DNA from: Thermodesulfobacteriota bacterium
GTDB taxonomy: Bacteria > Desulfobacterota > WTBG01 > JAGOGO01
Direction: 5' to 3'
DNA length: 32,000 nucleotides
Assembly: GCA_026625185.1 (NCBI GenBank)
Contig: CP113000.1
Coordinates: 675,622 to 707,621, forward strand
The notes under the pieces are model-generated. The model searched no databases and was not told the origin of the DNA. It saw only the letters and a list, made by a program, of their open reading frames with translations. The position numbers and the translations under genes were made by a program. Below, piece by piece: positions 8,264 to 32,000 of the stretch (the first letter of the stretch is position 1; each line of letters opens with the position of its first letter).

Positions 8264-8815
8264 TTATGGCTTATGTTTTACCATCTCAATCATTTTTTTA
8301 TAATCGAATCCTTTGTTAAACGGATTGTCGGCATTATGACAGGTAATGCAAACCCGCTCAGTAGGCTCGGTTAACCCGGCCTCCAGAGCCATTTTATGCT
8401 GACCTGCTCGGTTTTCTTGGTATTTTTTCTTACTCATGATGGCGGGGCTTCTATATTTGCTTCCCGGGCCATGGCACGATTCGCAACCAACATTCGTTAA
8501 ATCAGCGCCAGGCGCAGCCGGTTTACCGGATCCGACACTATGGCAGACAAGACACGAGGCATCAGTAGTATAATCCTTTTTGGGGTCAAGTTTCGCTCTG
8601 ATCTTAGCATCGCCCTTGTTACCCGGCTTTAAATTATCCAACGCACGGGAATGAGAATCTTTTTGCCAGGATTGAAATTCAGCCCGATGACAAGCGATGC
8701 ATTTTTTATTTCCCACATAGAGTAATTGATCGGCCGCCACTTTGGGGAGGTGGACTAATAGAAATAAAAGCATAATCACGATTAGGGGTAAAATTGCCAT
8801 ACCGGCTTTTTTCAT
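8264..8815 (-). CDS. Tetrahaem c-type cytochrome, secreted
   Basis: There are four CXXCH motifs (CIACH, CLVCH, CESCH, CITCH). The signal-anchor is MKKAGMAILPLIVIMLLFLLV. The start is set at ATG 8815 (M42 of the track ORF), 6 nt after AAGGAG. Confidence 0.85.
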   Translation of the reverse strand: MKKAGMAILPLIVIMLLFLLVHLPKVAADQLLYVGNKKCIACHRAEFQSWQKDSHSRALDNLKPGNKGDAKIRAKLDPKKDYTTDASCLVCHSVGSGKPAAPGADLTNVGCESCHGPGSKYRSPAIMSKKKYQENRAGQHKMALEAGLTEPTERVCITCHNADNPFNKGFDYKKMIEMVKHKP

Positions 8816-9097
8816 GGTCATCTCCTTTTTTAGAAAGATTTTAAAGGCATAAATCTTTCTTAATGAGTTATTTTTCCGACTCCATCGCTCAGGACGGGTT
8901 TTTGAACTCCATACGCAGCTCCTTGTGATGGCAAACAAGAGAAAAATATTCTTTTATTTTGTTTTTGGCAAGACTTCTTGCGTGGTGTGAGAAAAACATA
9001 AGACATTTTATGGGGAACAGCCTATAATTTTGTTTGATACTCTTCATTTGATTATTTTGGTTGATCTATTAACCGTTAGCATATAAAAAACATTATT

Positions 9098-9739
9098 ATG
9101 ATTGAACCTTATCCTTTAAACCTGCTTCTTAATAATAGAGCGGTCGCGGTGATTGGGGGGGGTGGAGTCGCCGAGCGGAAGGTCTTGAGTCTTCTCGACA
9201 CCGGGGCCAAAATTACCGTGATTGCACCGAAAGCAACCAAAAAAATCAAATCATTAGCCGCAAAAAAAAAGATAGTTTTAAAGCTCAGAAATTTTGTTCA
9301 TGATGATTTAAAGGGCAAACTTTTGATCTTCGCGGCCACGAATTCAGATGAGGTTAACAAGCAGGTTTCTCGCTCAGCCCGCAAAAAAGGCATCCTGGTA
9401 AACTGTGTTGACGACCCTAAGGAATGTGATTTTTTTGTTCCTTCATTTTTTCGGCGGGGAAGTCTTTTGCTTGCGGTATCCACGGGAGGTAAGATACCGG
9501 CTTTAGCAAAAAAGATCAGAAGGGATATCGAGCTTTCTTACGGAGCACTATTCGCGGAGTATGTAAAGTTACTCGCCAAGGCGCGAGGCGCAATCTACCG
9601 CAATACTTCATTAAGTTTTCAGAAAAAAAGAGATTTGATCGAAAAAATGATCGAGAGCAACATATTATCCCTGCTCAAAAAGGGAAAAAAGGAAGAAGCC
9701 TCAAAGATTATCCGGGAGTTTTTACAAAAAAATCTTTAG
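9098..9739 (+). CDS. Precorrin-2 dehydrogenase / sirohydrochlorin ferrochelatase (siroheme synthase N-terminal domain type, SirC/Met8-like)
   Basis: 213 aa. The Rossmann motif is AVAVIGGGGVAERKVLSLLDTGAKITVIAP. Size and layout match the CysG N-terminal domain family. Confidence 0.8.
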   Translation: MIEPYPLNLLLNNRAVAVIGGGGVAERKVLSLLDTGAKITVIAPKATKKIKSLAAKKKIVLKLRNFVHDDLKGKLLIFAATNSDEVNKQVSRSARKKGILVNCVDDPKECDFFVPSFFRRGSLLLAVSTGGKIPALAKKIRRDIELSYGALFAEYVKLLAKARGAIYRNTSLSFQKKRDLIEKMIESNILSLLKKGKKEEASKIIREFLQKNL

Positions 9740-19090: not shown

Positions 19091-21685
19091 ATGTTAGAAA
19101 AAATTTTTCAAAAGTTGAAATTTCACAAGTCTAAGTCTTCGAGAGATACTTTCTCAGAAATCTTCCGGATTAAATATGAACACTTTCGTGAGCTACTCAA
19201 CGCGAATGCGGAACTCGCAAAAATTATTGCCGACATAGAAGAAAAGCTCCAGGGACATACAATTTTTGGCATGTCCTATGTTCGTTCCCAGGCAGTTCAG
19301 GCAGTCTTTTATACTCTCCGAATGGTAAAAAGTCTTAATGCTCTTGCAAACAATAAATACTTTCTCCTGGTAACTGTCCTTGAAGGGTTACATTCCAGCA
19401 TCAAAGAAGAGATCGAAAAAAGAAAGGAAAGTCCCATAGTCGCATTGACCCTTCCCTTTTCCGAGGTTAATCGCGAAATGGTAGACTGGGTTGGAGCTAA
19501 GAGCGCCAATCTGGGGGAGATGCTCAATCGGCTTCATCTCCCTATATCACCGGGATTCGCAATTACTACCAGGGCCTTTGACCTTTTTCTCCAAGAGAAT
19601 AATCTTATTGATGAGATTAATAAAAAAAAGATTGAGTTTGGCGGAGCGGCTCCAGAAACCATCAACATCCTCAGTAAAGAAATTCAGGATTTAATTATCT
19701 CAGCGCCTGTTCCCCCGGCATTAGGTGAGGCTATACTGGCGGCTTATGACCATATGATGGGAACCTTCCCAAGAGAGAGGCATGATGATCTTGTCTCTCG
19801 GGTTGCTTTAAGGAGTAGTGCGGTTGGAGAAGATAGCGAACTTTCCTTTGCCGGCCAATATGTATCTGTTCTCAATGTGTCCCGGGACAAAATTATTCAA
19901 ACCTATAAAGATATTGTAGCCGGTCTTTTTGCCCCACGTGCCATCTCATATCGCTTTAGCAAAGGAGTTCGGTTCCAGGATATTGCAATGGGTGTTGCTT
20001 GTCTTCAGATGGTAGAATCGGTAGCGAGCGGTGTCGTTTATTCCCGGCACCCCTTTAACCCTTTAGAAAATCATTTTATCATTACCGCACTGTGGGGATT
20101 AGGCCCTTATGCGGTTGAAGGGGTAATTACCCCTGACACTTATACTGTCGCCAAGGACAATGCTCATACCATCCTTCAAACCACGGTTGCCATCAAACCA
20201 CGCCAGTTGGTCAGCAATCCCGATGGTGGGCTTAAAGAAGTGCTTGTCTCGGGTGAAAAACAAGGCCATCCCTGTTTATCACCCGAACAAATTAAGATGT
20301 TGGCTGAATATGCTGGCAGGATAGAGAAACATTATGGCGCTCCTCAAGATATAGAGTGGGCACTCGACAAAAAGGAGAATATTTTTCTTCTTCAAACCCG
20401 GCCACTCCGTCTGTCACCGGGAGACCAGCAAAAAATGATAAAAAACATCCCCCAGCAAACCGAATACTCGCTTTTAGTGGAGAACGGGGCAGTTGCCTTT
20501 CCCGGAGTGGGATTTGGAAAGGCCTTTGTGCTCCACTCAGATGAAAACCTCAGCAATTTCCCGGAGGGCGGTATTTTAGTTGCCAAACATTCTTCCCCCG
20601 ACTTTGTAATAGTAATGCCGAAAGCAAAAGCCATTGTCACCGACACCGGGAGCGTAACCGGGCATATGGCTTCCCTAGTCCGGGAATTTGGGATACCGAC
20701 AATATTAGACGCTAAAAATGCCACCCGTACTATTACATCAGGATTAGAAATAACCGTTGATGCTTACTCAGGACGGGTATATCAGGGGAAAGTTCCCGAA
20801 CTTTTAAACCTCCAGATAAACAAAGAACCTTTTTTCAAGGATGCGCCGGTCTATCAGGCCTTAAAACGAGTAGGGGACTTTATTGTTCCCTTACGTCTTT
20901 TTGATCCTAAAGCTCCGGAGTTTTCTCCCGAGCATTGTAAATCTCTTCATGACATCATGAGGCTCGTTCATGAATTTTCTTATGCTGAGATGTTTCAAAT
21001 CAGTGACTTGGTTTCGGATGTGAAAGGAGGCGCCCTGAAGTTAGATGCTCCGCTTCCGCTGGACTTCTATATTATCGATTTAGGCGAAGGGTTGACTGGG
21101 CTAAGCGAAAATACCAAAAAAGTAACTGTCGATAAAATTGTTTCGGTTCCTTTTCGGGCGCTCCTTCAAGGAATGCTACATGAAGATTTACGTTTTCAAG
21201 GACCACGGCCGATTGAATTAAAAGGCTTCTTTTCGGTCATGAGTGAGCAGATGTTTTCTAACCCGCAGGCTGCCGAAAGATTCGGTGAACGGACCTATGC
21301 AATTATCTCCGATAAATATCTCAATTTCAGCTCTCGAGTCGGATACCATTATGGTATTTTAGACGCCTATTGTGGTAAGAGCATCAACAAAAATTACATC
21401 ACTTTTTCTTTTAAAGGTGGAGCGGCTGATGATGTGCGGAGGAATCGGCGCGCCCGTATGATCGCCTTTATTCTGAAGGCGCTTGATTTTTCTGTTGAAG
21501 TAATAGCGGATCGGGTTGATGCCCGACTCAAAAAATATGAATCTTCGGTGATTGAAGAAAAATTAGACTTGCTTGGTCGGTTGCTTCAGTTTACCCGACA
21601 GATGGATATGCTGATGGATAGTGAAGCCAGCGTGGAAACCATCGCAAAAAAATTTTTAGAGGGGAAATACGATCTGGAATTTTAA
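19091..21685 (+). CDS. PEP/pyruvate-binding (ATP-grasp) plus phosphohistidine swivel domain enzyme with an uncharacterised C-terminal region
   Basis: 864 aa. A PPDK_N-like region begins at VGAKSANLGEM. The swivel domain contains TDTGSVTGHMASLVREFGIPT (catalytic His). The last ~300 aa do not resemble the PpsA/PPDK TIM-barrel PEP-binding domain. Confidence 0.75.
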   Translation: MLEKIFQKLKFHKSKSSRDTFSEIFRIKYEHFRELLNANAELAKIIADIEEKLQGHTIFGMSYVRSQAVQAVFYTLRMVKSLNALANNKYFLLVTVLEGLHSSIKEEIEKRKESPIVALTLPFSEVNREMVDWVGAKSANLGEMLNRLHLPISPGFAITTRAFDLFLQENNLIDEINKKKIEFGGAAPETINILSKEIQDLIISAPVPPALGEAILAAYDHMMGTFPRERHDDLVSRVALRSSAVGEDSELSFAGQYVSVLNVSRDKIIQTYKDIVAGLFAPRAISYRFSKGVRFQDIAMGVACLQMVESVASGVVYSRHPFNPLENHFIITALWGLGPYAVEGVITPDTYTVAKDNAHTILQTTVAIKPRQLVSNPDGGLKEVLVSGEKQGHPCLSPEQIKMLAEYAGRIEKHYGAPQDIEWALDKKENIFLLQTRPLRLSPGDQQKMIKNIPQQTEYSLLVENGAVAFPGVGFGKAFVLHSDENLSNFPEGGILVAKHSSPDFVIVMPKAKAIVTDTGSVTGHMASLVREFGIPTILDAKNATRTITSGLEITVDAYSGRVYQGKVPELLNLQINKEPFFKDAPVYQALKRVGDFIVPLRLFDPKAPEFSPEHCKSLHDIMRLVHEFSYAEMFQISDLVSDVKGGALKLDAPLPLDFYIIDLGEGLTGLSENTKKVTVDKIVSVPFRALLQGMLHEDLRFQGPRPIELKGFFSVMSEQMFSNPQAAERFGERTYAIISDKYLNFSSRVGYHYGILDAYCGKSINKNYITFSFKGGAADDVRRNRRARMIAFILKALDFSVEVIADRVDARLKKYESSVIEEKLDLLGRLLQFTRQMDMLMDSEASVETIAKKFLEGKYDLEF

Positions 21686-21690
21686 CTTGA

Positions 21691-21720
21691 TGAGACCCTG
21701 TAGCTTTCTACAGGGTCTCA
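21691..21720 (+). terminator. Terminator-like hairpin after the PEP-utilising enzyme gene
   Basis: tgagaccctgtag-cttt-ctacagggtctca forms a 13-bp perfect stem starting 6 nt after the stop codon. The trailing ttgtgt is only weakly U-rich. Confidence 0.5.
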
Positions 21721-21785
21721 TTGTGTCATTCTCTGGCTTGACTCCCGTATCAAGTACGGGACAGGCTCCGAATCCAGTTTCTTTG

Positions 21786-21876
21786 TTTCTGGATTCCCCG
21801 ATCAAGTCGGGGAATGACGATGTACTTTGTATAATTTTTGGGATACCCCGCAGCTTGCTGCGGGGAGGGTCATTAT
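21786..21876. repeat. Compound stem-loop repeat, left copy
   Basis: tttctggattccccgatcaagtcggggaatgac ... gataccccgcagcttgctgcgggg..tcattat aligns in the same orientation with 22698-22779. A related hairpin lies at 21743-21761 (tcccgtatcaagtacggga). Confidence 0.75.
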
Positions 21877-21912
21877 ATTTTCCCTGACTCTATCTTCTGT
21901 CTCCTGACCCCA

Positions 21913-22527
21913 TTACTTTTTAAAGATATCCGTCTGGCTGATGTTCATAAACCGCAGAGCCTTGCCTTCCTGCTTATAGTAGATCCGAACTTCATCCCCC
22001 GCGTCCCAGGTATAATCCGGACGTTTAAAGTACTCCTCGGGAAGGCTAAGGGTAACCAGAATTTTTTGTCTCTTAGAGTAGATCGTAATAGTTTTTTTGT
22101 CTCGGTCTACGACAGGAAATTTTTTGGGTTGCTTTTTCTCTTTGTCAAAAACCAGCGAATTTTCTTTTTCCACATTTTCCTTTTGATCGATGAGGGTGTA
22201 AGTGATAATGTTAAAATTTTGCGCACTTGGGTCAAAAATAGTTATTTGCCGGTTCTGAGTGTCAAGCTTCATCCGAAGTCCAGGCTTAGGTTCCGGACCC
22301 ATTTCAGCCGGTTTCTTGGGGATCTCATAAATTACCGGGGGTAAGTGGCTATAGTCAGGATTCTTGGGGTCAGGGCTTGTATCCCGGATAAGGGTACAAA
22401 GCCCTTTTTCTTTATCATAGGCTACTACTCTTCCCTGGTCTACTTTTCCAAACTCCTTACAGCCAATAATCACTGTTAGAAATAAAATGAGTCCTAATGG
22501 CATAAACCAACAAACTTTTTTCATCAT
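21913..22527 (-). CDS. Lipoprotein of unknown function
   Basis: 204 aa. The signal peptide has the lipobox LTVIIGC. The mature part is Lys/Asp-rich. Family not confidently recognised. Confidence 0.65.
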   Translation of the reverse strand: MMKKVCWFMPLGLILFLTVIIGCKEFGKVDQGRVVAYDKEKGLCTLIRDTSPDPKNPDYSHLPPVIYEIPKKPAEMGPEPKPGLRMKLDTQNRQITIFDPSAQNFNIITYTLIDQKENVEKENSLVFDKEKKQPKKFPVVDRDKKTITIYSKRQKILVTLSLPEEYFKRPDYTWDAGDEVRIYYKQEGKALRFMNISQTDIFKK

Positions 22528-22697
22528 GTGTTTCTCCCCCTGAGAAGTTTCATTTATTTTTTTTAATACCCCGTCCGTTTGCCACGGGGTGAGACGCGGT
22601 GTTAATAGCTGTGGATGTCATTCCCGTGAAAACGGGAATCCAGAGGGTGGGTATCAGGGACGACTAATAAAAAAAGTGCTTAGTCGCTTTACCTTAG

Positions 22698-22779
22698 TTT
22701 CTGGATTCCGCATCAAGTGCGGAATGACAGAATTTAAATTCTTTGATACCCCGCTGCTTGCGGCGGGGTAGTTCATTAT
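22698..22779. repeat. Compound stem-loop repeat, right copy
   Basis: The sequence is tttctggattccgcatcaagtgcggaatgac ... gataccccgctgcttgcggcgggg..tcattat. Extra hairpins lie at ~22568-22590 (ccccgtccgtttgccacgggg) and ~22617-22645 (gtcattcccgtgaaaacgggaatccag). Confidence 0.75.
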
Positions 22780-22798
22780 CAAATTTGCCGACCAAGCG

Positions 22799-23857
22799 TT
22801 ATAGTGCAGCGGCTTTTTTGGCAGCGATCTCCTTTCTTGCGCCGGCGAGCATTTTGAGAAAAATGTAGAGGGACAAAACACTCACCACCCCCAAAACCGT
22901 GACGGTGGCGGTGGCATCGCACAATCCTTTTATGGTGGGGAAATAGGTCGGAAGGAGCTTAAGGACAATAGAGACCGCACAGCCGATGACCGCGCAACCG
23001 AAAGCGACACGGATACCATAGCCTTTGATATATTTCGTAGCCACCGTACCGATCTGTGCGCCTATCGCTGCTCCCACCAGCATGACGAGAGCCGCCAAAA
23101 GTTCGGTGCGGCCTTTGAAGGTATAAGTAGCTGCTCCATAGAGACCGGAGATCATGACTTCAAAAAGGTCGGTCCCCACGGCGATATAGGTTGGGCAGCC
23201 GATAATATAAATAAGAGCCGGCATACGGATGAGTCCGCCGCCGATACCGAGTATCCCCGCCAACCACCCGGTAAGGAAACTCACCATGATCGGCAGCCAG
23301 GCTGAACAATATATCCCGGCAGTTTTTAAATGGATCATGGGAGGGATTTTGATCTTTTGAAAGGTTTTATGCCATTCAATGCCGGTGGCAAGCTTATCTA
23401 TTTCTCTCCCTGCTGCTTTCGCCTCTTTCTCTTTTTTTCTTTTTATATACACGTCGCTGAAAACCATCCAGGCAATAAACGCCAAAAGCACCAAATAGAG
23501 ATAGCGTACGATGATTTCAACCCTTCCCAGGCGTTCAAACCACATGATCATCTGAGCGCCGGCTTCAAACCCCACGATGGTGCCAACCAGCATGATAAAG
23601 CCAAGCTTGTAGTCAACATTCCCAAATCTCCCGTGCCGCATGGTGGAGATGAGGGACTTTCCCGCCATATGAGCGATATCAGTTCCGATAGCAAAAGCCA
23701 TAGGGAAGCCGAGAATATTAAGCCCGGGCGTTACCATCCAGGCGCCCCCCATACCGAAAAAGCCGCCGATAATACCAACGCCGATACCGAGAACAATTAA
23801 GCCGGGCCAAAATATCGTGACCCCCGAGATCGGCATAAGAATATATAACCATTCCAT
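22799..23857 (-). CDS. TSUP (TauE/SafE, DUF81) family membrane transporter, paralogue A (long form)
   Basis: 352-aa polytopic protein with two homologous halves. GGFFGMGGAWMVTP...GTDIAH and GILGIGGGLIRMP...AVGTDLFE are present, as is HGRFGNVDYKLG. The charged central loop contains IPPMIHLK. Confidence 0.85.
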   Translation of the reverse strand: MEWLYILMPISGVTIFWPGLIVLGIGVGIIGGFFGMGGAWMVTPGLNILGFPMAFAIGTDIAHMAGKSLISTMRHGRFGNVDYKLGFIMLVGTIVGFEAGAQMIMWFERLGRVEIIVRYLYLVLLAFIAWMVFSDVYIKRKKEKEAKAAGREIDKLATGIEWHKTFQKIKIPPMIHLKTAGIYCSAWLPIMVSFLTGWLAGILGIGGGLIRMPALIYIIGCPTYIAVGTDLFEVMISGLYGAATYTFKGRTELLAALVMLVGAAIGAQIGTVATKYIKGYGIRVAFGCAVIGCAVSIVLKLLPTYFPTIKGLCDATATVTVLGVVSVLSLYIFLKMLAGARKEIAAKKAAAL

Positions 23858-23897
23858 AAACTACCTCCTCATCCACTATTAACAATATTAGTGCAAA

Positions 23898-24197
23898 TTA
23901 ATGCTCTGCCAGTTCCCTTGACGAAAGGTCAATGCCAATTTTTTTCATAACCACATCGGCAATTAATCCAAAAATGACGCCGATGATGGGGATAATAAGT
24001 ATGGTCAGCAGCGCAAAATAAAGATGACTTTCATTATAAAGGTTGGCCCACCAAGCCATTAAACCGGTAATATGGCGGGTATCAGCAACGATAACGATAG
24101 GAGCTTCTTTCCCTCCACCGGCTGCCGAAGCAATGTGAGGCGCAAGGAAGAAGGCCAGAATCACTAAATTTATCATTTTTCCTAAGAGTTTTTTCAT
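23898..24197 (-). CDS. Small signal-anchored membrane protein (partner of TSUP-A)
   Basis: 99 aa. The signal peptide is MKKLLGKMINLVILAFFLAPHIASA. The C-terminal TM helix is ALLTILIIPIIGVIFGLIADVV. SD agggagg lies upstream. It sits 40 nt upstream of TSUP-A and ends ...LAEH. Confidence 0.7.
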   Translation of the reverse strand: MKKLLGKMINLVILAFFLAPHIASAAGGGKEAPIVIVADTRHITGLMAWWANLYNESHLYFALLTILIIPIIGVIFGLIADVVMKKIGIDLSSRELAEH

Positions 24198-24247
24198 TTT
24201 TACAGCCTCCCTTTTTGTTGTGAAGGGTGATTTATCTTACTTTGGAG

Positions 24248-24652
24248 TTAGGCTTTTAAATTCCTTTTTTCTCGAGCCATCTTTTTTTCATGGGCTTCCT
24301 CGATTTTTCCCAGGAGCTCATCAAGCGGACAAGGTTTTAAAACATAATCATATCCACCCAGTTTTGTTATTTCTACTGCTGCATCAACGGAAGCATGTCC
24401 GGTAAGGATAATAACATCAAGCAACGGATTGATTTTTTTTATCTCAGCCAAAGCCTCAATGCCGTTCATTTCCGGCATTTTGATGTCCAGGAGGATCACA
24501 TCATAGGATGTTTTTTTTATCTCGTCGAGCGCTTCTCTGCCGGTTCCCACGGCAGTAGTATCAAAGCCTCTTACTTTGAGTCTTGCGGTCAAGGCAGTCC
24601 GAAATGCCTCTTCATCGTCAACAACAAGTATTCGTGACAGCGTAGACATCAT
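24248..24652 (-). CDS. Stand-alone response-regulator receiver protein (RR2)
   Basis: REC motifs are ILVVDDEE, ILLDIKMPEMNG, ILTGHAS and LKPC. No output domain follows. The start is set at ATG 24652 after AAGGATG; the track ORF starts at TTG 24664. Confidence 0.88.
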   Translation of the reverse strand: MMSTLSRILVVDDEEAFRTALTARLKVRGFDTTAVGTGREALDEIKKTSYDVILLDIKMPEMNGIEALAEIKKINPLLDVIILTGHASVDAAVEITKLGGYDYVLKPCPLDELLGKIEEAHEKKMAREKRNLKA

Positions 24653-24695
24653 CACATCCTTCAATACCTTGATTGCAAAAAATAATTAACTACCT

Positions 24696-24764
24696 ATCTC
24701 TTCCATTGTTGGCGAATCTAACTGCAATGAATATGCCAGATAACGATCTCTTCCATAACTGGCG
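24696..24764 (-). promoter_or_regulatory. Two 19-bp direct repeats exactly 50 bp apart that bracket the sigma-54 core promoter
   Basis: The + strand reads atctcttccatTGTtggcg (24696-24714) and atctcttccatAACtggcg (24746-24764), with 16 of 19 positions identical including an 11-nt exact core. Confidence 0.5.
24723..24738 (-). promoter_or_regulatory. Sigma-54 (-24/-12) promoter match upstream of RR2, the small membrane protein and TSUP-A
   Basis: The minus strand reads cTGGCAT-attca-TTGCAg with the exact consensus spacing. It lies in the 190-bp gap between RR1 and RR2, about 70 nt upstream of the RR2 start. Confidence 0.6.
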
Positions 24765-24851
24765 CGATAAAGGATGATTACACATCTATATGACATACCT
24801 TTAATTGGCAAAAAATGATAAATATCATTTTTGATGATAATTTTTATCAAC

Positions 24852-25385
24852 TTAATAACAATTTTTCTCATTAAAAAAGTTTGAAGGGTTCTGTTTTGTC
24901 CGGCGAAGTGTGTCAAATTTTTTTAGATTTTGTAAGGTTTTTAGCGAAGAATCGGTTGCCATTTGGGAAAGTATTTTTCTCATTTCTTCATCTTTATACC
25001 CGTATTTATTCTGGATTCTTTTCTGATAAGCCTCTTCAAGCACCTGAAGAAGCATCTCCAATTCACAAGGTTTTTGAAGATAGTAGTAGGCACCTAACTT
25101 AGTGGTGCGGACGGCAGAATCAATGGACCCATGACCAGTCAAAATAATTACCTCTAAAAATTTATGCTCCTTCTTCAAGACTTCTAATACTTGTTCTCCA
25201 CCCATGCCAGGCATTTTTAAGTCAACCAAAGCGATCTCGAATTCATTTTTTCGCGCGGCTTCGATAGCTTCTTCTCCACTGCTCACGGGAGTAACCTCAA
25301 AATTTCTCAGTTCGAGACGTTTGCAGATTGTTTCAAGGAATTGTCTTTCATCATCAACCAGTAATAGGCTAATTTTTTCTCCCAT
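24852..25385 (-). CDS. Response-regulator receiver protein with a short non-DNA-binding tail (RR1)
   Basis: REC motifs are LLLVDDER, ALVDLKMPGMGG, ILTGHGS and LQKPC. The ~55-aa C-terminal tail has no recognisable HTH or AAA+ domain. SD agaggag lies upstream. It starts 17 nt after the kinase stop. Confidence 0.88.
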   Translation of the reverse strand: MGEKISLLLVDDERQFLETICKRLELRNFEVTPVSSGEEAIEAARKNEFEIALVDLKMPGMGGEQVLEVLKKEHKFLEVIILTGHGSIDSAVRTTKLGAYYYLQKPCELEMLLQVLEEAYQKRIQNKYGYKDEEMRKILSQMATDSSLKTLQNLKKFDTLRRTKQNPSNFFNEKNCY

Positions 25386-25402
25386 GAAACTCCTCTTTAT
25401 AT

Positions 25403-27148
25403 TTATGATTTTCTTTTAAAAGGAAGAAGGATTTCAAAGGTTGAACCTCGTCCAACCTCACTCCTAACTTCGATTCTCCCGCCCATGCCTTTAATGATTC
25501 CGTAGCTTACCGACAATCCCAAGCCGGTTCCCTTGCCAACCTGCTTAGTAGTATAAAAGGGGAAAAATATTTTTTCCATCTGTTCAGGGGTCATCCCGCA
25601 ACCAGTATCCGTGACTGCTACCCCGATAAATTCCCCTTTCATCATGGTTCGAAAAAAAATTTTCCCCGGGGAGGCAGTAGCGGCAATGGCATTATTAATT
25701 ATGTTAATAAAAACTTGCTGGAGCTGGTTGCGGTTCGTATAAACCTCCGGCAAATTTTCATCAAAATCAGTTTTAACCTTAATATTGGATATCATGAATT
25801 CGTTCTGCATCATCCGGATCACTTCCTGTAAAATTTTATTGATATCTTCCGACTGTAATTTTACTTCATCCTTGCGGACGAAGCCCAAGAGTTTTCCGGT
25901 AATATCCCGGCACCGGAAGACTGCATTGAGAATAATATCCAGGTGTTTATTGTATTCTTCGGGGGTTATCTCCTTGGTGTAGAGCTGAGGATCGAGCATG
26001 TCTTTCAATAGTCCAGCTTCTTCCCCGATAATAGCTAAAGGATTATTGATCTCATGAGCGATTCCGGCCGCAAGCTCGCCTACTGATGCGAGCTTGGCCG
26101 CATGAAAAAGCTGGCGTTGAAGGTCGTATTTTGCGATATCGTTTTTTTCTAAGAGCCCGATAAAGCGTGTGGTGGTAAATGATATAACGGCAACGATGAC
26201 AATGAAAAAAACCAAAAAAAGGGCGATGATAATAAAGCGAGTACGATACATGGTGGCGTAAGCTATTTTTAATGGTTGCAACACAACGAGACACCAATTT
26301 ACTTCGTGAAGCCAGGAATAGGCAGAAAGATAGGTGACATTATTATGGGAGAGTTCTTGTGCGCCTAATGTCGGCTCATTTTTTGGAAGGTAGGGAGAGG
26401 ATCCGAGGATTGTTCCCAGAGAACTTGGCACACTCTGGTATTTTCCCACGGTATTAACAATAAAGGTGAAAACGTCTCCGGTATTCTCCAGGGTATGGAT
26501 AAAATCTGCGAACCTAATAGGATCAACGGTTGCCCTTAATACCCATTTCCCCCCATTTACTTCCTGGGTTACCGCAAGGGTAAAGTGAGGTTTTCTCCGA
26601 AACCCTAAATATATGTCACTGATGATGTATTTCTTACTTCCCTGCATCAGAGAAATAAACCATGGTTCCTTGCTGTAGTCCTTATTTTTGAGAAAAGAAA
26701 AAGGACCTGCATAAGCCAGATGGATTCCCTTTTCATCAAATAAGCCCACATCGACAAAGGTGGGGCTGTCTTGTTTAAGTTTTTCCAGACTTTTTTGCAT
26801 GGTTTCATCCGAGGCAGGGATAAAAAATTTCGGACTCTCAAGCAGATTTTTAAGGTTTACCACTCGTTCCTGCAAAAACAGGTCAATGGTGTTACGCTGG
26901 CTTTCAGCAATGGATTTGAGGTGCGACTTGCTGCTTTCAGTGAGCGTGATGGTAAACTGAAAATGAAAATAAACCGAAAGCAAAACCAACGGCAAAATAT
27001 AGATCACCAGGCGAAGAATGAGGGTTTTTTTTCGCAACCGGTCATAGAGCACCTGGATCGCCGCCTTATCCATGGGCAAGGAATCGTCGGGGGGTTTCTC
27101 CGGCGGGTTCATTTTTTGATTTTGATTCCAAGTCGCCTTCATTTGCAT
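25403..27148 (-). CDS. Sensor histidine kinase with a periplasmic Cache/PDC-like domain
   Basis: 581 aa. Two TM helices (LILRLVIYILPLVLLSVYF and FIIIALFLVFFIVIVAVISF) flank a ~240-aa extracytoplasmic region. The H-box is AAGIAHEINNPL, the N-box NIINNAIAAT and the G-boxes DTGCGM and GTGLGLS. Confidence 0.9.
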   Translation of the reverse strand: MQMKATWNQNQKMNPPEKPPDDSLPMDKAAIQVLYDRLRKKTLILRLVIYILPLVLLSVYFHFQFTITLTESSKSHLKSIAESQRNTIDLFLQERVVNLKNLLESPKFFIPASDETMQKSLEKLKQDSPTFVDVGLFDEKGIHLAYAGPFSFLKNKDYSKEPWFISLMQGSKKYIISDIYLGFRRKPHFTLAVTQEVNGGKWVLRATVDPIRFADFIHTLENTGDVFTFIVNTVGKYQSVPSSLGTILGSSPYLPKNEPTLGAQELSHNNVTYLSAYSWLHEVNWCLVVLQPLKIAYATMYRTRFIIIALFLVFFIVIVAVISFTTTRFIGLLEKNDIAKYDLQRQLFHAAKLASVGELAAGIAHEINNPLAIIGEEAGLLKDMLDPQLYTKEITPEEYNKHLDIILNAVFRCRDITGKLLGFVRKDEVKLQSEDINKILQEVIRMMQNEFMISNIKVKTDFDENLPEVYTNRNQLQQVFINIINNAIAATASPGKIFFRTMMKGEFIGVAVTDTGCGMTPEQMEKIFFPFYTTKQVGKGTGLGLSVSYGIIKGMGGRIEVRSEVGRGSTFEILLPFKRKS

Positions 27149-27236
27149 ATCTTTGTTGTCTCCTCGTCGCCGCCTCGATCTGCTTTTGAATGCAACTTGG
27201 TATGGTTAGTCGGTTTTTAAGGTTTTTGAGACCGCA

Positions 27237-28079
27237 TTATTCTACTGCCACCGGGAGTTCCTGGAGGTCTACCTTGATATCTTTTACGCCGGAGACGCTT
27301 TTGGCGATGGTTCTAATTTCAGCCTCAGTTTGTCTCAGGCCGGTGGCAAACATGCCGACGGTAGTATACAATTTACCCTGAATGTGGACATTGCCGTCTT
27401 TAACCTCAACGTCAAGTTCAATCCCCCTAGTACGTTCATTAAGGGCTATTTTAGCTTTAATCTGACAAGCAAGGGCAAAATTTTCAATGGCTTTATGTTT
27501 TGCCCCGGTATCCTTAAATTCTGGTTGATCGAGGGCATACATGATCATGCCACAGGCGGTATCTATACTCAGATTTTCAAGGTTGATAACCATATCATAG
27601 AGGAAGGGATCGGTCAAATCAACATGGTAGAAAAATTTGGTCCACTGTTTACGCCTCTCATCTACTTTTTCAATATACTCTTTTGCAGCTTCCTCACTTA
27701 TATTTTTTTTCGCCATCTCGTTTTTTATTCGTTGACTTAATGGGGCAACCAGGCGGACTTTAAAAACATTAGGTACACCCTGGAGGAGAAAATGGCCGGC
27801 AAGTCCATAGTAAATAAAATCTCCTTTAGCAGCGCGCTCAGCCATAGCTGATTGAAGAGCGATTAAATATAGACGTCGCTTTTCGCCCAAAAGACGTTCC
27901 CAGACTTTTGGCCCTTGTTTAAGCTGTTGAGAAATTTCCGATTCCGATATCCCGTAAAGAGTAGCCGCTTCCTTAATGACTTCTACACCTACGGCTGGAA
28001 ATCCTGTTTTTTTTGTCAGACATTGGGCTAATGTCTCTCCGCCGCTAAAGGTGCCTCGGGAAATAGTCACAATAGGCAT
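27237..28079 (-). CDS. Cytidylate-kinase-like family (Cytidylate_kin2-type) protein with a C-terminal BON-like domain
   Basis: The N-terminus MPIVTISRGTFSGGETLAQCL matches the ISRE.GSGG pattern of the family, whose P-loop lacks the Lys. The C-terminal ~70 aa (IELDVEVKDGNVHIQGKL...IAKSVSGVKDIKVDL) look like a BON domain. There is no signal peptide. Confidence 0.65.
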   Translation of the reverse strand: MPIVTISRGTFSGGETLAQCLTKKTGFPAVGVEVIKEAATLYGISESEISQQLKQGPKVWERLLGEKRRLYLIALQSAMAERAAKGDFIYYGLAGHFLLQGVPNVFKVRLVAPLSQRIKNEMAKKNISEEAAKEYIEKVDERRKQWTKFFYHVDLTDPFLYDMVINLENLSIDTACGMIMYALDQPEFKDTGAKHKAIENFALACQIKAKIALNERTRGIELDVEVKDGNVHIQGKLYTTVGMFATGLRQTEAEIRTIAKSVSGVKDIKVDLQELPVAVE

Positions 28080-28394
28080 GATTTACCTCCTCTTTTAATA
28101 CGTAGTATCAATGCCGGCAAACACGTTCGCTGCCTTAAATCTAATTTAGAACCGCTTGCCTTGCTCATGGATTTTTAATCTATAACCTTTTTATGAAAAA
28201 ACCAGTTTTTTGATTAAAGGGCTGTCGTTATGTCAGAAAATAATCATACAAAAAGAAAACCTAAGCCTCCTTAACATGGTGTAAAAAAGGAAATAAAATA
28301 ATTGCGAAAAAGGAAAGCTAATATGTGAGACTACAAAATAATAATTATCTTGCGCGCTGTTTTTTAACATAAGCGAAAACGATTGCAGAACAAA

Positions 28395-28428
28395 TGATTT
28401 TTATCAACTATCTATCTGATAATAATCA
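28395..28428. promoter_or_regulatory. Inverted repeat in the divergent promoter region (candidate operator)
   Basis: tgatttttatca (28395-28406) and tgataataatca (28417-28428) match as an inverted pair at 11 of 12 positions with a 10-bp spacer, about 80 nt upstream of TSUP-B. The 13-mer atttttatcaact (28397-28409) recurs at 24840-24852. Confidence 0.4.
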
Positions 28429-28509
28429 GAGAAATACCCATGGCTTATGCCGTATAAGATAAAAAAACAAAATGGTAGAGGATTTAATTAGTCAGGAGGA
28501 TTAATCTAT

Positions 28510-29763
28510 ATGAATTTTTTTAAAAAGACCTTTGAATATATGGAGGCCGCCTCAATAGCCCATGCTAAGTGGGACTATGAGGTCTCGATGAACATCCTCC
28601 ACAGAAAAAAACGCTTCTTGATCCTGGGGGGGGTTGCCGCGACCTGGATCATCCTCGCCGCAATCGCGGCCAATGCCTCTGACATCTTGGGAGGCAAGAC
28701 TGCGTATGCTCCAGCCTTTTATGCCACCAATGTTTTTTTAGTATCAATCGCTATCGGGTTTTGCGCTGGTTTGATCACCGGCTGTATCGGCGCGGGCGGA
28801 GGTTTTATCATTACTCCGGCGCTCATGGCAGTGGGGGTTAAAGGGATCCTTGCCGTTGGAACCGACCTTTTTCACATTTTTGCCAAGGCGATCATGGGAT
28901 CGGTGCTGCACGGAAAGCTCGGTAATGTCAACGTTAAAATAGCAATGGCTTTTTTGGTTGGTTCAATCGGAGGCGCTACCCTCGGCGGTATAATTCAAAA
29001 GGCCATTTATGCCAAAGACCCGATTTTAAGTGATGCATTCTTAAGCATTATCTATGCTCTGATCCTTGGACTGCTTGGCTGGTATGGGGTATCCGATTTC
29101 CTCAAAAAACGCAGACAGTTCAGAATTCCTTTAGAAGCACGGCCTCCAACGCCGGCGGAAGTTAAGCTTGCTTTTAGATTACAGTCTTTAAATATCCCCC
29201 CCGCAGTCAAGTTTGATGAAGATATAGTTCCCGGAGGCAAAAAAATTTCGGGGGTAATTCTTGCTGCCGGTGGCTTTGTGGTTGGTCTTGCCTCTACGTT
29301 GATGGGGGTTGGCGGAGGCTTTATCACCTTCCCGATGTTTGTCTATGTGTTTGGTATTTCTACTTTTACCACGGTGGGAACCGATATCTTTCAAATCGTT
29401 TTTACTGCCGGATATTCCGGCATCGCCCAATATGCCATTTATGGCTTTGTCTTTTATACCCTGGCAATGGGGATGCTGCTTGGTTCTCTTCTGGGAATCC
29501 AGATTGGCGCGCTTACTACCAAGGTGGTAAAAGGCATTACCATACGGGGTTTCTGGGTTACCACCATCCTGGCCGGTTTTATAAATCGAATAACTGCGCT
29601 CCCCAAACAGTTTAGCGAACTCGGGATAATCAATCTTCCGAAAACCCTGTGCCTGGGGATTGAAAAAGCCGGCTTTTATATTTTTTGGATAATAATAGTG
29701 ACTTTTGTCCTATGGGTATTAGGCACTTTTATCAGAAACATAAAGACCTTCAGGGAGGAATAA
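28510..29763 (+). CDS. TSUP (TauE/SafE, DUF81) family membrane transporter, paralogue B (long form with an N-terminal extension)
   Basis: 417 aa. It contains GCIGAGGGFIITP...AVGTDLFH, HGKLGNVNVKIA and the second half LMGVGGGFITFP...TVGTDIFQ. The central loop contains IPPAVKFD. An additional ~70-aa N-terminal region includes an extra TM helix. Confidence 0.85.
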   Translation: MNFFKKTFEYMEAASIAHAKWDYEVSMNILHRKKRFLILGGVAATWIILAAIAANASDILGGKTAYAPAFYATNVFLVSIAIGFCAGLITGCIGAGGGFIITPALMAVGVKGILAVGTDLFHIFAKAIMGSVLHGKLGNVNVKIAMAFLVGSIGGATLGGIIQKAIYAKDPILSDAFLSIIYALILGLLGWYGVSDFLKKRRQFRIPLEARPPTPAEVKLAFRLQSLNIPPAVKFDEDIVPGGKKISGVILAAGGFVVGLASTLMGVGGGFITFPMFVYVFGISTFTTVGTDIFQIVFTAGYSGIAQYAIYGFVFYTLAMGMLLGSLLGIQIGALTTKVVKGITIRGFWVTTILAGFINRITALPKQFSELGIINLPKTLCLGIEKAGFYIFWIIIVTFVLWVLGTFIRNIKTFREE

Positions 29764-29765
29764 CC

Positions 29766-30476
29766 ATGCTAATACAGGATAAAAAACATTTTTCACTTGG
29801 CGTGATATTAGCGGTCAGTTTTTTATTATTGTTTCTGGTGATCATGTCCCCGGTATTCGGCGGGAAAAACGGCCTCCAGTATGCCGATGATATTTTTAAC
29901 AAACTTTCTAAGGGGTCTTCCTATTTCATCCCCGAGGCAACCAAGAGCATCGAAAAATTTATGGACAAACAAACTTCAGTCACCATCAAATATGAAAACC
30001 CGGAAGATGCCCAAAGAACTGCCCGCCTGCTTACGTTATCCGAAGCTAGGACGGAACAACAGGAAGGCACTTTAAAGATAGAAGGGAGCTTGGGCAAGAT
30101 CATGGCCACGGGAATAAGGGATTCTAATTTTATGTATTACAACGACGGTGAAAAACTGAAAAATGCTTACGGCTACGATGAAAAGCAGGTGATGAAAGAC
30201 TGGTGGCAGGCTTTTGATAAAATGAGCAAGGAATATAAGAAAAACAAGGCTTTTGATAATGCGAAAATATTATCAGATGTGAACAAAAAGGTGGTCGAAG
30301 CTGCCTACAATTTTTACCGGATCGAGCCGGTGAAGGTTTCCGAGCGAGCCGGCACCATGACCGGGCTGCTCGTATTCTATGTGCTCTATAGTGTTTGGTG
30401 GGGATTTGCCCTCATGTTTTTAGTTGAGGGGATGGGACTCACCATGACGAAAAAAGGAGCCAAAAAGGAAGATTAA
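29766..30476 (+). CDS. Bitopic membrane protein of unknown function (partner of TSUP-B)
   Basis: The ATG lies 2 nt after the TSUP-B stop and is preceded by gggagga. The N-terminal TM helix is LGVILAVSFLLLFLVIMSPVF. A ~170-aa soluble domain follows, then a C-terminal hydrophobic segment LLVFYVLYSVWWGFALMFLVEGMGL. No family recognised. Confidence 0.7.
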   Translation: MLIQDKKHFSLGVILAVSFLLLFLVIMSPVFGGKNGLQYADDIFNKLSKGSSYFIPEATKSIEKFMDKQTSVTIKYENPEDAQRTARLLTLSEARTEQQEGTLKIEGSLGKIMATGIRDSNFMYYNDGEKLKNAYGYDEKQVMKDWWQAFDKMSKEYKKNKAFDNAKILSDVNKKVVEAAYNFYRIEPVKVSERAGTMTGLLVFYVLYSVWWGFALMFLVEGMGLTMTKKGAKKED

Positions 30477-31255
30477 TGGCCGCCTTTCCCCTTAAAAATA
30501 AAACCGGCAAGCAACCCTACCACAATTGCAATGACCACGGCAATGATTCCGTAAACGGCGCTATGGTGCTGTGCCATGTAAGTAAACCAGCGAGATAGAC
30601 CAACCTTTTCAATGGTAATCGTTTGTTGAGTTTCCCCTAAGATCACTCCGTCCCTTATTGCCCAGCAGGTTATGGCATAATTCCCTTCCACTGCGCGGTC
30701 GGAGAAATGGAGATCAAACATAAAAGAGCTATTCTCCTTGTTGATCTCAATGACGTTTTCCCTCACCCCATAAAGCCCGGCCTTTTCCTTCATTTTCAAA
30801 AAACCCTCAAAAACCACGTTTCGATCATCGTCACCGGGTTTCCCGCTTAAAAGTTTGATCCTCAGGTTTTGTTTTAGAGCATCGTAACCAATCTTAAGTT
30901 CTTTTTTTAAGTTTTCATTTAAAACGTCAGGGAGATTCCCCGATGAAAGAACCTTATAAAGAAAAGGAACATGAGAAACTTCAAATTGTTTGACGCTCAT
31001 CCAGAAAAAAACTACCCTCCCCTTGCGTACCAGCTTTAAGGAAGGATTGTTTTCTGACTTTACCTGCATAATTATTGTGGCCTCAGGTTGGGGAAGGGTA
31101 CCCTTAAATCTTATGGTGTCACCTCCAAAGCCTATTCCCATAGCAACCTTTTTTTCCGGCAACAAGGTAAAGCACGTTTCTCCTTTTACCGGCGGAACAA
31201 AAAAAATGAGCGAGACGACCACGAACACCAAAGTTTTAATAAAGGTTTCTTTCAT
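30473..31255 (-). CDS. Alph_Pro_TM / TIGR02186-like signal-anchored membrane protein (partner of TSUP-C)
   Basis: 260 aa. It has a signal peptide, a ~200-aa extracytoplasmic domain, and the C-terminal anchor YGIIAVVIAIVVGLLAGFIF followed by KGKGGH. The architecture and the position directly after a DUF81 gene match my recollection of the TIGR02186 family. The start is 2 nt after the TSUP-C stop. Confidence 0.55.
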   Translation of the reverse strand: MKETFIKTLVFVVVSLIFFVPPVKGETCFTLLPEKKVAMGIGFGGDTIRFKGTLPQPEATIIMQVKSENNPSLKLVRKGRVVFFWMSVKQFEVSHVPFLYKVLSSGNLPDVLNENLKKELKIGYDALKQNLRIKLLSGKPGDDDRNVVFEGFLKMKEKAGLYGVRENVIEINKENSSFMFDLHFSDRAVEGNYAITCWAIRDGVILGETQQTITIEKVGLSRWFTYMAQHHSAVYGIIAVVIAIVVGLLAGFIFKGKGGH

Positions 31256-31257
31256 GA

Positions 31258-32000
31258 TTAATGCCCTCCTGCAGCTTTGGCAAGTCCAATGACGTTATCT
31301 GGGGTCACTAAGAGATCAAATAGCATCTTCACCATTACCAACAGGACGATGATGGAAAGAAGAATGCGGATCTGTTCTCCCCGAAGGAAGCGACTTGCAC
31401 GAACACCAAACTGGGCGCCGATAACCGATCCCGTAAAAAGAAATACTACCAGCACTAAATCAACCGTATGGTTCGTAATTGCCTGCTGTAAAGTAACATT
31501 TGCGGTAGTAATAACGATCTGAAAAAGATCGGTTCCCACCGCGACGATGGTGGGCATGCCGATAATATAGATCATGGTAGGCACCATAATAAACCCCCCG
31601 CCAACACCCATGAGGGCAGCCAGAAAACCCACTAAGAAACCAGCGCTAAAAGGAAAAATCGCGGAAGTCTCCAGCCCGGATCGCTTAAAATGCATCTTAA
31701 AGGGTAAGCGGGCAAAGAACAACGAAAGTTTATTGGGACCAATCTCGCCCTCTTGTACTGAAGAAGCTTTAGATTTTCTCAGGGCATTAAGGCTCTCAAC
31801 AAACATAGCGCTTCCCACTCCCCCTAGGATCAAGACATATACTGCCCGGATAACAAAGTCGAAGTTCCCCATCTCCCGGAGATACTTTACTACCTGGACC
31901 CCGACGGTTCCACCGGCAATACCGCCGATGAGAATAACCACGCCCATTTTTAGGTCCACGTTTCCCAACCTCCAGTGACTAAAAGCACCGGAGGTCGCTG
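31258..32000 (-). CDS. TSUP (TauE/SafE, DUF81) family membrane transporter, paralogue C (5' end outside the window)
   Basis: The frame stays open upstream of the track's TTG to the window edge (...ATSGAFSHWRLGNVDLKMG). It contains LMGVGGGFIMVP...AVGTDLFQ. The central loop contains LPFKMHFK. The protein ends ...AAGGH. Confidence 0.85.
   Translation of the reverse strand, partial: ATSGAFSHWRLGNVDLKMGVVILIGGIAGGTVGVQVVKYLREMGNFDFVIRAVYVLILGGVGSAMFVESLNALRKSKASSVQEGEIGPNKLSLFFARLPFKMHFKRSGLETSAIFPFSAGFLVGFLAALMGVGGGFIMVPTMIYIIGMPTIVAVGTDLFQIVITTANVTLQQAITNHTVDLVLVVFLFTGSVIGAQFGVRASRFLRGEQIRILLSIIVLLVMVKMLFDLLVTPDNVIGLAKAAGGH

Follow-up and report, generated by a model that had tools for sequence, protein, structure and literature searches.

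Three TSUP transporter genes with dedicated membrane-anchored partners in a kinase, receiver and dikinase locus of a Thermodesulfobacteriota bacterium

Genes and features of the locus

A 32,000-nucleotide (nt) stretch of the genome of a Thermodesulfobacteriota bacterium (GenBank assembly GCA_026625185.1, contig CP113000.1, positions 675,622 to 707,621; here called the window) contains three genes for long members of the TSUP (TauE/SafE) transporter family, each beside a gene for a different membrane-anchored protein. Partner and TSUP gene positions come from the listing of open reading frames (ORFs) and from profile searches (Pfam, NCBIfam) of the window proteins. TSUP A (352 amino acids (aa); 22799..23857, minus strand; PF01925 E-value 1.9e-40), TSUP B (417 aa; 28510..29763, plus strand; 1.4e-37) and TSUP C, cut by the window end (31258..32000, minus strand; 3.9e-33 for the fragment), are all present where a first-pass annotation had placed them. 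They lie far above the TauE (PF01925) cut-off of 32.6 bits, with 139, 130 and, for full-length TSUP C, 160 bits. Full-length TSUP C, taken from a 350-kb metagenome contig that holds the window (the source contig), has 310 aa (PF01925 1.3e-46) and ends in -AAGGH. The spacings between each TSUP gene and its membrane-anchored neighbour (40, 2 and 2 nt) were likewise annotated correctly. In the alignment TSUP A is just 29% and 32% identical to the other two TSUPs; the three are therefore old paralogues and not recent duplicates.

The two halves are homologous in the alignment, and both carry the helix-break motif G-x-GGG-x3-P (GVGGGFLLTP and GVGGGFIMVP in TSUP C). The GGG and P columns of the second half are invariant across the three TSUPs; in the first half this holds for the P and for all but one of the three G columns, TSUP A reading GGAW. 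The central-loop motif first described as common to all three is so only in its [IL]-P element, at least 90% conserved in each subfamily, the remainder being subfamily-specific (IPPMIHL in A, IPPMITFDED in B and LPxxxxF in C). According to hydropathy profiles, TSUP A extends the TSUP core by one more transmembrane helix at the C-terminus and a Lys-rich tail, and TSUP B has extra transmembrane helices at both the N- and the C-terminus of the core. Hydropathy, these extra terminal helices and the junction of natural fusion proteins (see below) together suggest that both ends of the core lie outside, the long Lys/Arg-rich central loop facing the cytoplasm.

Upstream of TSUP A, across the 40-nt gap, lies the gene of a 99-aa protein of the DVU0150 family (23898..24197, minus strand; NF040783 9.8e-42, 141.4 bits against a cut-off of 70), for which the source-contig annotation gives the precomputed Pfam entry PF28216. 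The protein has a signal peptide, a short ectodomain and a single transmembrane helix, and its tail ends in -SRELAEH. On the other side of TSUP A is the gene of a 204-aa DUF4881 lipoprotein with the lipobox LTVIIGC (21913..22527, minus strand; PF16222 1.5e-78, 263 bits against a cut-off of 27), a protein with 1749 homologues, the best 120 of which are at least 62% identical. A two-component description (one TSUP with one partner) thus captures a real pairing in module A but leaves out the third part, the lipoprotein. The original list of parts had missed its gene (21913-22527) as well as the dikinase gene described below (19091-21685), and had not named the DVU0150 family. The spacer between the TSUP A and DUF4881 genes measures 271 nt (22528..22798), against 12-50 nt in other genomes (L002, L087 and L171; L-numbers denote loci from the surveys described below, L002 being a Nitrospiraceae metagenome-assembled genome (MAG) and L012 a Poribacteria locus). 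Short GC-rich, REP-like hairpins, such as TACCCCGCTGC..GCGGCGGGGTA and ATTCCCCGA..TCGGGGAAT, fill both flanks of the DUF4881 gene (21686-21912 and 22528-22798) and generate the spurious ORFs listed there. A perfect 14-bp inverted repeat (21690..21721; 100% complementary in a repeat search), between the convergent dikinase and DUF4881 genes, is probably a bidirectional terminator hairpin.

The partner of TSUP B, a 236-aa protein encoded 2 nt after it (29766..30476, plus strand), has no family in the copies of Pfam and NCBIfam that were searched. A 165-aa ectodomain of mixed alpha/beta structure lies between its N- and C-terminal transmembrane helices. Its AlphaFold2 model (pLDDT 87) shows a helical ectodomain with a small beta-alpha-beta insert, and comparison with PDB structures gave no fold match at E < 0.1. 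With 1499 close homologues of near-constant length, forming 425 clusters at 50% identity, it defines a sizeable protein family with a confident model and without family assignment or known fold.

The gene of the 260-aa partner of TSUP C (30473..31255, minus strand) is again separated from its TSUP gene by 2 nt. The label 'Alph_Pro_TM-like' first given to this protein was borne out (PF09608 9.6e-47, 160 bits against a cut-off of 24.5); scoring 66 bits, below the TIGR02186 cut-off of 255.25, it is by sequence a divergent relative outside the alphaproteobacterial TIGR02186 equivalog. In the AlphaFold2 model (pLDDT 78), a signal sequence precedes a beta-sandwich that carries a helical insert; an amphipathic helix and a single membrane helix follow. 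The only structural matches of the model are generic Ig-like beta-sandwiches. The genes of the 236-aa and Alph_Pro_TM proteins are convergent, with a 4-nt tail-to-tail overlap (30473-30476) that leaves no space for a terminator. They lie ∼120 nt apart in the close relatives L007 and L091, and in L157 the four genes of modules C and B are all on one strand.

A C-terminal histidine recurs in these proteins. The Alph_Pro_TM protein of the window ends in -GGH and its counterparts mostly in -G-x-H or -AEH; -GGH closes 73 of 82 C-type TSUPs, and -LAEH all DVU0150-family homologues examined save the divergent one of L012. TSUP A, TSUP B and the 236-aa family are without it. The side on which the -GGH of TSUP C lies is conflicting, the predictions suggesting that the core end is outside while the partner -GGH should be inside.

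Next to the DUF4881 gene, and convergent with it, stands the gene of an 864-aa dikinase resembling phosphoenolpyruvate (PEP) synthase (19091..21685, plus strand). The protein comprises an N-terminal helical extension, a PPDK_N ATP-grasp domain (Pfam 4.3e-84), a mobile His domain (PEP-utilizers, 8.6e-21) and a 290-aa C-terminal domain. The mobile domain carries GSVTGH at residues 526-531, and the catalytic His531 is kept in 70/70 relatives. Pfam gave no PEP-utilizers_C match, the protein thus being without the pyruvate/PEP-binding TIM barrel. PEP synthases in the PDB align to residues 123-573 only, and the protein scores 357 bits against a cut-off of 598 for the PEP synthase equivalog. The 290-aa domain had no match in Pfam, in the PDB (searched with the single sequence or a 39-sequence profile) or among plasmids. 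Beyond the window end, the source contig continues with a receiver gene, a second dCache-PAS kinase gene and a second dikinase gene (858 aa, PPDK_N/PEP-utilizers), so that two paralogous dikinase genes (864 and 858 aa) bracket the whole locus, one on each side.

Between modules A and B, all on the minus strand, are genes for a receiver-only response regulator (133-138 aa; 24248..24664; PF00072 5.1e-30, without output domain), a second one of 177 aa with a 55-aa C-terminal tail (24852..25385; PF00072 4.6e-24), a 581-aa sensor histidine kinase with a periplasmic dCache_1 domain (25403..27148; dCache_1 2.1e-13, HisKA 1.1e-08, HATPase_c 8e-25) and a 280-aa Cytidylate_kin2 protein with a weakly BON-like C-terminus (27237..28079; PF13189 1e-37). 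These agree with the Cache-type kinase, two receivers and cytidylate-kinase-like/BON protein of the first-pass annotation, save that the BON part (PF04972) reaches 21 bits against a cut-off of 27, beside a weak OsmY match. About 60 nt upstream of the first receiver gene, pattern matching and the sequence itself identify a sigma-54-type -24/-12 element, TGGCATATTCATTGC(A) (24724..24738, minus strand). The receiver gene at 24248..24664 is the first after this sigma-54-like promoter (TGGCATATTCATTGCA, 24724-24738), followed by the DVU0150-family, TSUP A and DUF4881 genes. The source annotation places a gene of 61 aa between the two receiver genes (window ∼24690-24875), overlapping the promoter; it is probably not a real gene. 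The consensus TGGCAC-N5-TTGCT occurs at the equivalent position, 510-600 nt upstream of the DVU0150-family gene, in L008, L087 and L089. Sigma-54 elements were not found upstream of modules B and C, and the window proteins scanned include no enhancer-binding protein. All three regulators, two in the window and one beyond, are receiver-only. The proposal that the locus is signal-controlled is plausible but not established; the receivers have no output domain, and no enhancer-binding protein is encoded near the one recognisable promoter, which is of sigma-54 type.

Conservation of the modules and their companions

The pairing of each TSUP with its own partner is conserved across genomes. A scan with the Alph_Pro_TM profile, using one genome per species and typing each TSUP by best match, found a C-type TSUP directly upstream of Alph_Pro_TM, on the same strand and abutting or overlapping, in 80/80 species loci. 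RefSeq annotates the same two genes side by side in Ruegeria sp. TM1040. Similarly, a B-type TSUP abuts the 236-aa gene upstream in 64 of the 65 loci of a metagenome scan that had enough upstream sequence. Module A is conserved as a triad: in every examined neighbourhood with a DUF4881 gene, from eight independent lineages, the order is DVU0150, TauE, DUF4881. The carriers include Syntrophobacter-like contigs and the Nitrospiraceae MAG, among other lineages. A DVU0150-family gene lies upstream of the A-type TSUP in every locus seen and DUF4881, where examined, always directly downstream of it; the Poribacteria locus L012 has DVU0150 and the A-type TSUP, without DUF4881. Across all loci surveyed, no cross-pairing between TSUP subfamilies and partners was seen, and the 2-nt gaps or overlaps between TSUP and partner genes suggest translational coupling. 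In three cluster representatives (P0396 with 671 aa, P0382 and P0389), a B-type TSUP and the 236-aa domain are fused into one protein. Identical copies of the P0396 gene stand on three contigs, of which two or more belong to different samples, which excludes an assembly artefact. At the fusion junction the tail of the TSUP runs into the N-terminus of the partner, both predicted to be cytoplasmic, in keeping with the proposed topology. Collectively, conservation near TSUPs (80/80 for C, 64/65 for B), the lack of cross-pairing and the natural fusions uphold the view that each TSUP core has a private partner. The possibility that the genes are merely co-transcribed, the small proteins being independent chaperones, enzymes or envelope proteins physically unconnected with the TSUPs, draws on the generic or unknown folds of the partners, but strict subfamily-specific pairing across phyla, gaps of 2 nt or overlaps between genes and above all the independent TSUP-B::partner fusions make it improbable and the least likely of the rival explanations.

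No kinship between the three partner families was detected. Profile-profile comparison of DUF4881, the 236-aa family and Alph_Pro_TM gave no mutual match, and hhalign aligned only DVU0150 residues 42-79, and these weakly (probability 53%), to the membrane anchor at the C-terminus of Alph_Pro_TM. A common origin of three partner families was rejected on these grounds. A TRAP-like tripartite transporter, in which DUF4881, Alph_Pro_TM or the 236-aa protein would act as the binding protein, was also rejected because the 236-aa and Alph_Pro_TM models have no periplasmic-binding-protein fold.

Signalling and phosphotransfer genes accompany the modules. Among the 72 C-type loci with enough flanking sequence, 59 have a dikinase relative, which lies directly downstream of Alph_Pro_TM in 47; a receiver-only regulator comes next in 43 of these 47. 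In many C-type loci a kinase gene and another dikinase paralogue come next, and the dikinase is also found near A triads and beside B pairs (L002, L005 and others). In most non-alphaproteobacterial genomes, dikinase, dCache kinases and receiver-only regulators accompany the TSUP modules. The most consistent companion is thus the PEP-synthase-like dikinase and not the parts stressed earlier. CBS, Usp and Cytidylate_kin2 proteins also recur near modules, relatives of the last adjoining C-type pairs or the 581-aa kinase in L008, L011, L012, L039, L040 and L091. The alphaproteobacteria keep the TSUP-Alph_Pro_TM pair alone, with no dikinase or kinase nearby; its neighbours there are housekeeping genes (UvrA, tRNA-related) that give no functional hint. 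Further TSUP subtypes adjoin dikinase or CBS genes (L002:17322-18745, L143:9748-10704 and L149:3312-4271), one of them having 330 aa and being followed by a 146-aa protein without Pfam family, another of ∼318 aa lying between two dikinase genes. The link between TSUP and dikinase therefore reaches beyond the three subfamilies.

Module A has a relative of known expression in Desulfovibrio vulgaris. The published quantitative PCR primers for DVU0149 encode KFGNVDY and EKVVRWI, for which TSUP A has RFGNVDY and VEIIVRYL; those for DVU0148 encode FSMPDHT and VSLRFM, and the DUF4881 protein has LSLPEEY and ALRFM. Translation of these primers to TSUP A and DUF4881 motifs supports orthology of module A to DVU0150-DVU0148, TSUP A probably corresponding to DVU0149 and the lipoprotein to DVU0148. 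Downstream of the A triad in L087 (10752-11740), L089 (10901-11889) and L171 (9742-10587) are genes for proteins of 68-69 aa and 260-281 aa with no Pfam family. These may be counterparts of DVU0147 and DVU0146; neither occurs in the window.

Elsewhere in the window, 285-2843 holds the genes of a DUF4143/AAA_14 ATPase and an IS30-like transposase (HTH_38 and rve). At 8264-9739 a gene for a multihaem cytochrome (Cytochrome_C554/c7-like, 224 aa) diverges from one for a sirohaem-synthase-like NAD-binding protein; beyond these come genes for ZnuA and an ABC ATPase, a carboxyltransferase and an adenosine deaminase. The genes from the cytochrome to the adenosine deaminase have no link to the TSUP locus in other genomes. 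A role in anti-phage defence was rejected, PADLOC having given no family except a weak kinase-domain match.

A proposed anion-uptake system and its rivals

These modules recur in hundreds of anaerobic bacteria, which suggests an anion-uptake system of several subunits, as yet uncharacterised; published observations bear on its parts from several sides. The DVU0150-DVU0146 genes appear under DVU0151 as a sigma-54-dependent 'transmembrane transport' operon (PMC4641369), and DVU0148-DVU0150 are induced in sulfate-free syntrophic co-culture of D. vulgaris (PMC4265775). The promoter element found here and in three other lineages agrees with this reported sigma-54 dependence. A second Desulfovibrio cluster, the 'nitrate cluster' DVU0251-DVU0245 / Dde_0597-0605, encodes a TauE-like protein, a small hypothetical protein, a PtxB-like protein, a kinase, a receiver-only protein, a protein with PPDK_N and mobile domains and a phosphatase (Korte et al. 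2014, PMC4001038). Transposon mutants of DVU0251 (TauE), DVU0250 (hypothetical), DVU0247 (receiver-only) and DVU0246 (PPDK_N plus mobile domain) are nitrate-resistant, and the authors proposed a leaky thiosulfate transporter (PMC4001038). Since all four kinds of mutant (TSUP, small protein, receiver and dikinase) behave alike, the parts act in one pathway in Desulfovibrio. In Dissulfuribacter, a TauE protein, a 'co-occurring transmembrane protein' and a protein that is listed as PEP synthase under the adjacent locus tag are more abundant during thiosulfate disproportionation (PMC13490349). This 'PEP synthase' (A0A1B9F8F1) is DITHS69_1988 in Table 2, next to the TauE pair 1989/1990, and DITHS69_1161 in the text (PMC13490349). 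If DITHS69_1988 is right, the protein is probably the dikinase of the system and not a gluconeogenic enzyme.

The explanation judged best, held with somewhat better than even confidence, is that the locus encodes three heteromeric TSUP permeases of ancient subfamilies, each dependent on its own accessory subunit or subunits, under control of kinases, receivers and dikinase, for uptake of a small anion. Module A would consist of the DVU0150-family anchor protein, TSUP A and the DUF4881 lipoprotein, module B of TSUP B and the two-helix protein with its novel alpha/beta ectodomain, and module C of TSUP C and the Alph_Pro_TM beta-sandwich protein. That TSUPs and accessory subunits belong together is well supported. 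The accessory ectodomains are predicted to face the periplasm, and may be needed for assembly or stability of the TSUP core or for substrate capture. The kinases would sense a periplasmic small molecule through their dCache domains and phosphorylate the single-domain receivers, which would act on the dikinase. It is the dikinase, and not a DNA-binding domain, that would be the output switching transport on, a proposal that rests on the phenotype shared by the Desulfovibrio TSUP, small-partner, receiver and dikinase mutants. Control of transport by the circuit through the dikinase is thus suggested by gene order and Desulfovibrio genetics. Module A would additionally be transcribed from the sigma-54 promoter by an activator encoded elsewhere. 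The substrate would be a small anion, thiosulfate or sulfite being the best guess.

Several points weigh against this explanation. Adjacency and fusion indicate functional linkage, not mechanism, as far as gene arrangement can tell. Judged from the models, the partner folds are generic or novel, give no hint of a binding site and include no periplasmic-binding-protein fold. The surveys were anchored on the partner genes, testing the association from partner to TSUP and not from every TSUP to a partner, and hence do not establish that every subfamily TSUP has one. The alphaproteobacterial C-type pairs have no dikinase or kinase nearby, so the transporter is not strictly dependent on them. The nitrate cluster is likened to the locus by gene content, not sequence, and has a PtxB-like protein and a phosphatase that are absent here. 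The 'PEP synthase' of Dissulfuribacter bears two conflicting locus tags (PMC13490349). Finally, the TSUP KbuT carries alpha-ketobutyrate (PMC12671195); since TSUPs also carry carboxylates, a sulfur substrate is not assured.

This last point leads to an unlikely alternative that nevertheless survives best among the rivals, namely uptake and trapping of an organic acid such as pyruvate, lactate or an alpha-keto acid, in which the TSUPs import the molecule and the dikinase phosphorylates it, its C-terminal domain being the substrate site. KbuT is needed for alpha-ketobutyrate use (PMC12671195), and the dikinase family acts on small molecules, its nearest NCBIfam models including ones for prodigiosin precursors, for rifampicin and for pyruvate. 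The dikinase repeatedly has a CBS-domain protein beside it, GntR/UTRA regulators are encoded nearby in L002 and L005, and syntrophic oxidation of lactate induces DVU0148-DVU0150. Phenylphosphate synthase, with its CBS subunit, offers a parallel to the CBS protein next to the dikinase. However, the clusters have no conserved downstream catabolic genes, the dikinase is without the pyruvate/PEP-binding TIM barrel, its pairing with a receiver (43/47) suggests regulation over catabolism, and the Desulfovibrio and Dissulfuribacter data indicate thiosulfate or nitrate-like anions.

Slightly less probable again is a signalling device, the TSUP-partner complexes serving as co-sensors (transceptors) or scaffolds that feed the kinase/receiver/dikinase circuit, with an output elsewhere in metabolism. 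In loci outside the alphaproteobacteria, the conservation of the kinase, the receiver-only regulator and the dikinase equals that of the TSUP pair itself; furthermore, the regulators have no DNA-binding output and the three ectodomain proteins, of differing folds, are sensor-like. Yet the kinases have periplasmic dCache sensors of their own, the alphaproteobacterial TSUP-Alph_Pro_TM pair occurs without any signalling genes, and nitrate resistance on TSUP loss in Desulfovibrio is most simply read as a lost entry route.

A bolder extension of the permease explanation can be put forward, though it is doubtful: TSUP, subunits, the dikinase with its swivelling histidine and the receiver would form a new class of phosphorylation-driven or phosphorylation-gated anion uptake in anaerobes. 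The dikinase would take phosphate from ATP or PEP and pass it to the receiver, the transporter or the substrate. If true, this would be a functional counterpart, though a distant one, of the phosphotransferase system, assembled from unrelated membrane components, and would account for both the Desulfovibrio 'nitrate cluster' and the syntrophy-induced DVU0145-DVU0150.

TSUP is among the largest transporter families, with almost no biochemistry; sulfate reducers have up to nine copies, whose role is unexplained. If at least three TSUP subfamilies need dedicated partners, the uninformativeness of single-gene studies would be accounted for. Companion dikinase, kinase and receiver genes tie together nitrate resistance in Desulfovibrio, the top syntrophy-responsive cluster of D. 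vulgaris and the thiosulfate-induced proteins of a disproportionator. The three observations would become one system, testable in D. vulgaris, for the uptake of sulfur oxyanions by anaerobes at low concentration.

Comparison with known systems

The component families are known as names only, one of them being without any family, and the pairings surface in annotation names as well as in scattered omics and genetic studies. To our knowledge, TSUPs have not previously been described in the literature searched as multi-subunit transporters or as linked to this dikinase as a system. The statement that the locus is 'not a described pathway' stands insofar as no mechanism is known, but homologous clusters have been reported (PMC4265775, PMC4641369, PMC4001038, PMC13490349).

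Characterised TSUPs are known as single-gene carriers of about 250-300 aa. TauE, SafE, TsaS and KbuT (TC 2.A.102) share PF01925 and the two-fold G-x-GGG-x3-P repeat with the proteins of the window and are small-anion carriers. In comparison, the three TSUPs described here are long forms with a charged central loop of 40-60 residues, A and B have extra terminal helices, and all three have partner genes. Module C is a TauE/SafE plus TIGR02186/PF09608 pair, of the type co-induced on thiosulfate in Dissulfuribacter thermophilus (PMC13490349). Alphaproteobacterial TauE/SafE plus TIGR02186 pairs, unlike the locus of the window, are without dikinase and two-component genes. We know of no study of the TauE/SafE plus Alph_Pro_TM pairing, which is noted in annotation names.

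DVU0150-DVU0146 of D. vulgaris, together with the DVU0145 receiver and the DVU0151 activator, is the counterpart of module A; both have a sigma-54 promoter and an adjacent receiver gene. The operon is known from expression data alone (syntrophic co-culture). The window has no counterparts of DVU0146/0147 and no DVU0151-like activator, and adds two TSUP modules. All five kinds of protein compared with the nitrate cluster (TSUP, adjacent small protein, kinase, receiver-only regulator and PPDK_N/mobile-domain protein) are also found here, the comparison being one of gene content alone. The nitrate cluster has one TSUP against three here, and its small partner has 195 aa. PtxB-like or dual-specificity phosphatase domains were found neither in the genes of the locus nor in those just past the window end or in ten of the larger upstream ORFs.

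With PEP synthase (PpsA), the dikinase shares the ATP-grasp N-domain and the mobile phospho-histidine domain, the C-terminal TIM barrel being replaced by the conserved 290-aa domain. As regards architecture, the TRAP (DctPQM) and TTT (TctABC) transporters and the animal MCT-basigin complexes are likewise secondary carriers that need a separate extracytoplasmic or single-pass subunit. In contrast to TRAP and TTT, no partner here has a periplasmic-binding-protein fold, and the carrier families are unrelated. In outline, the Alph_Pro_TM protein, a beta-sandwich on a single helix, is similar to basigin.

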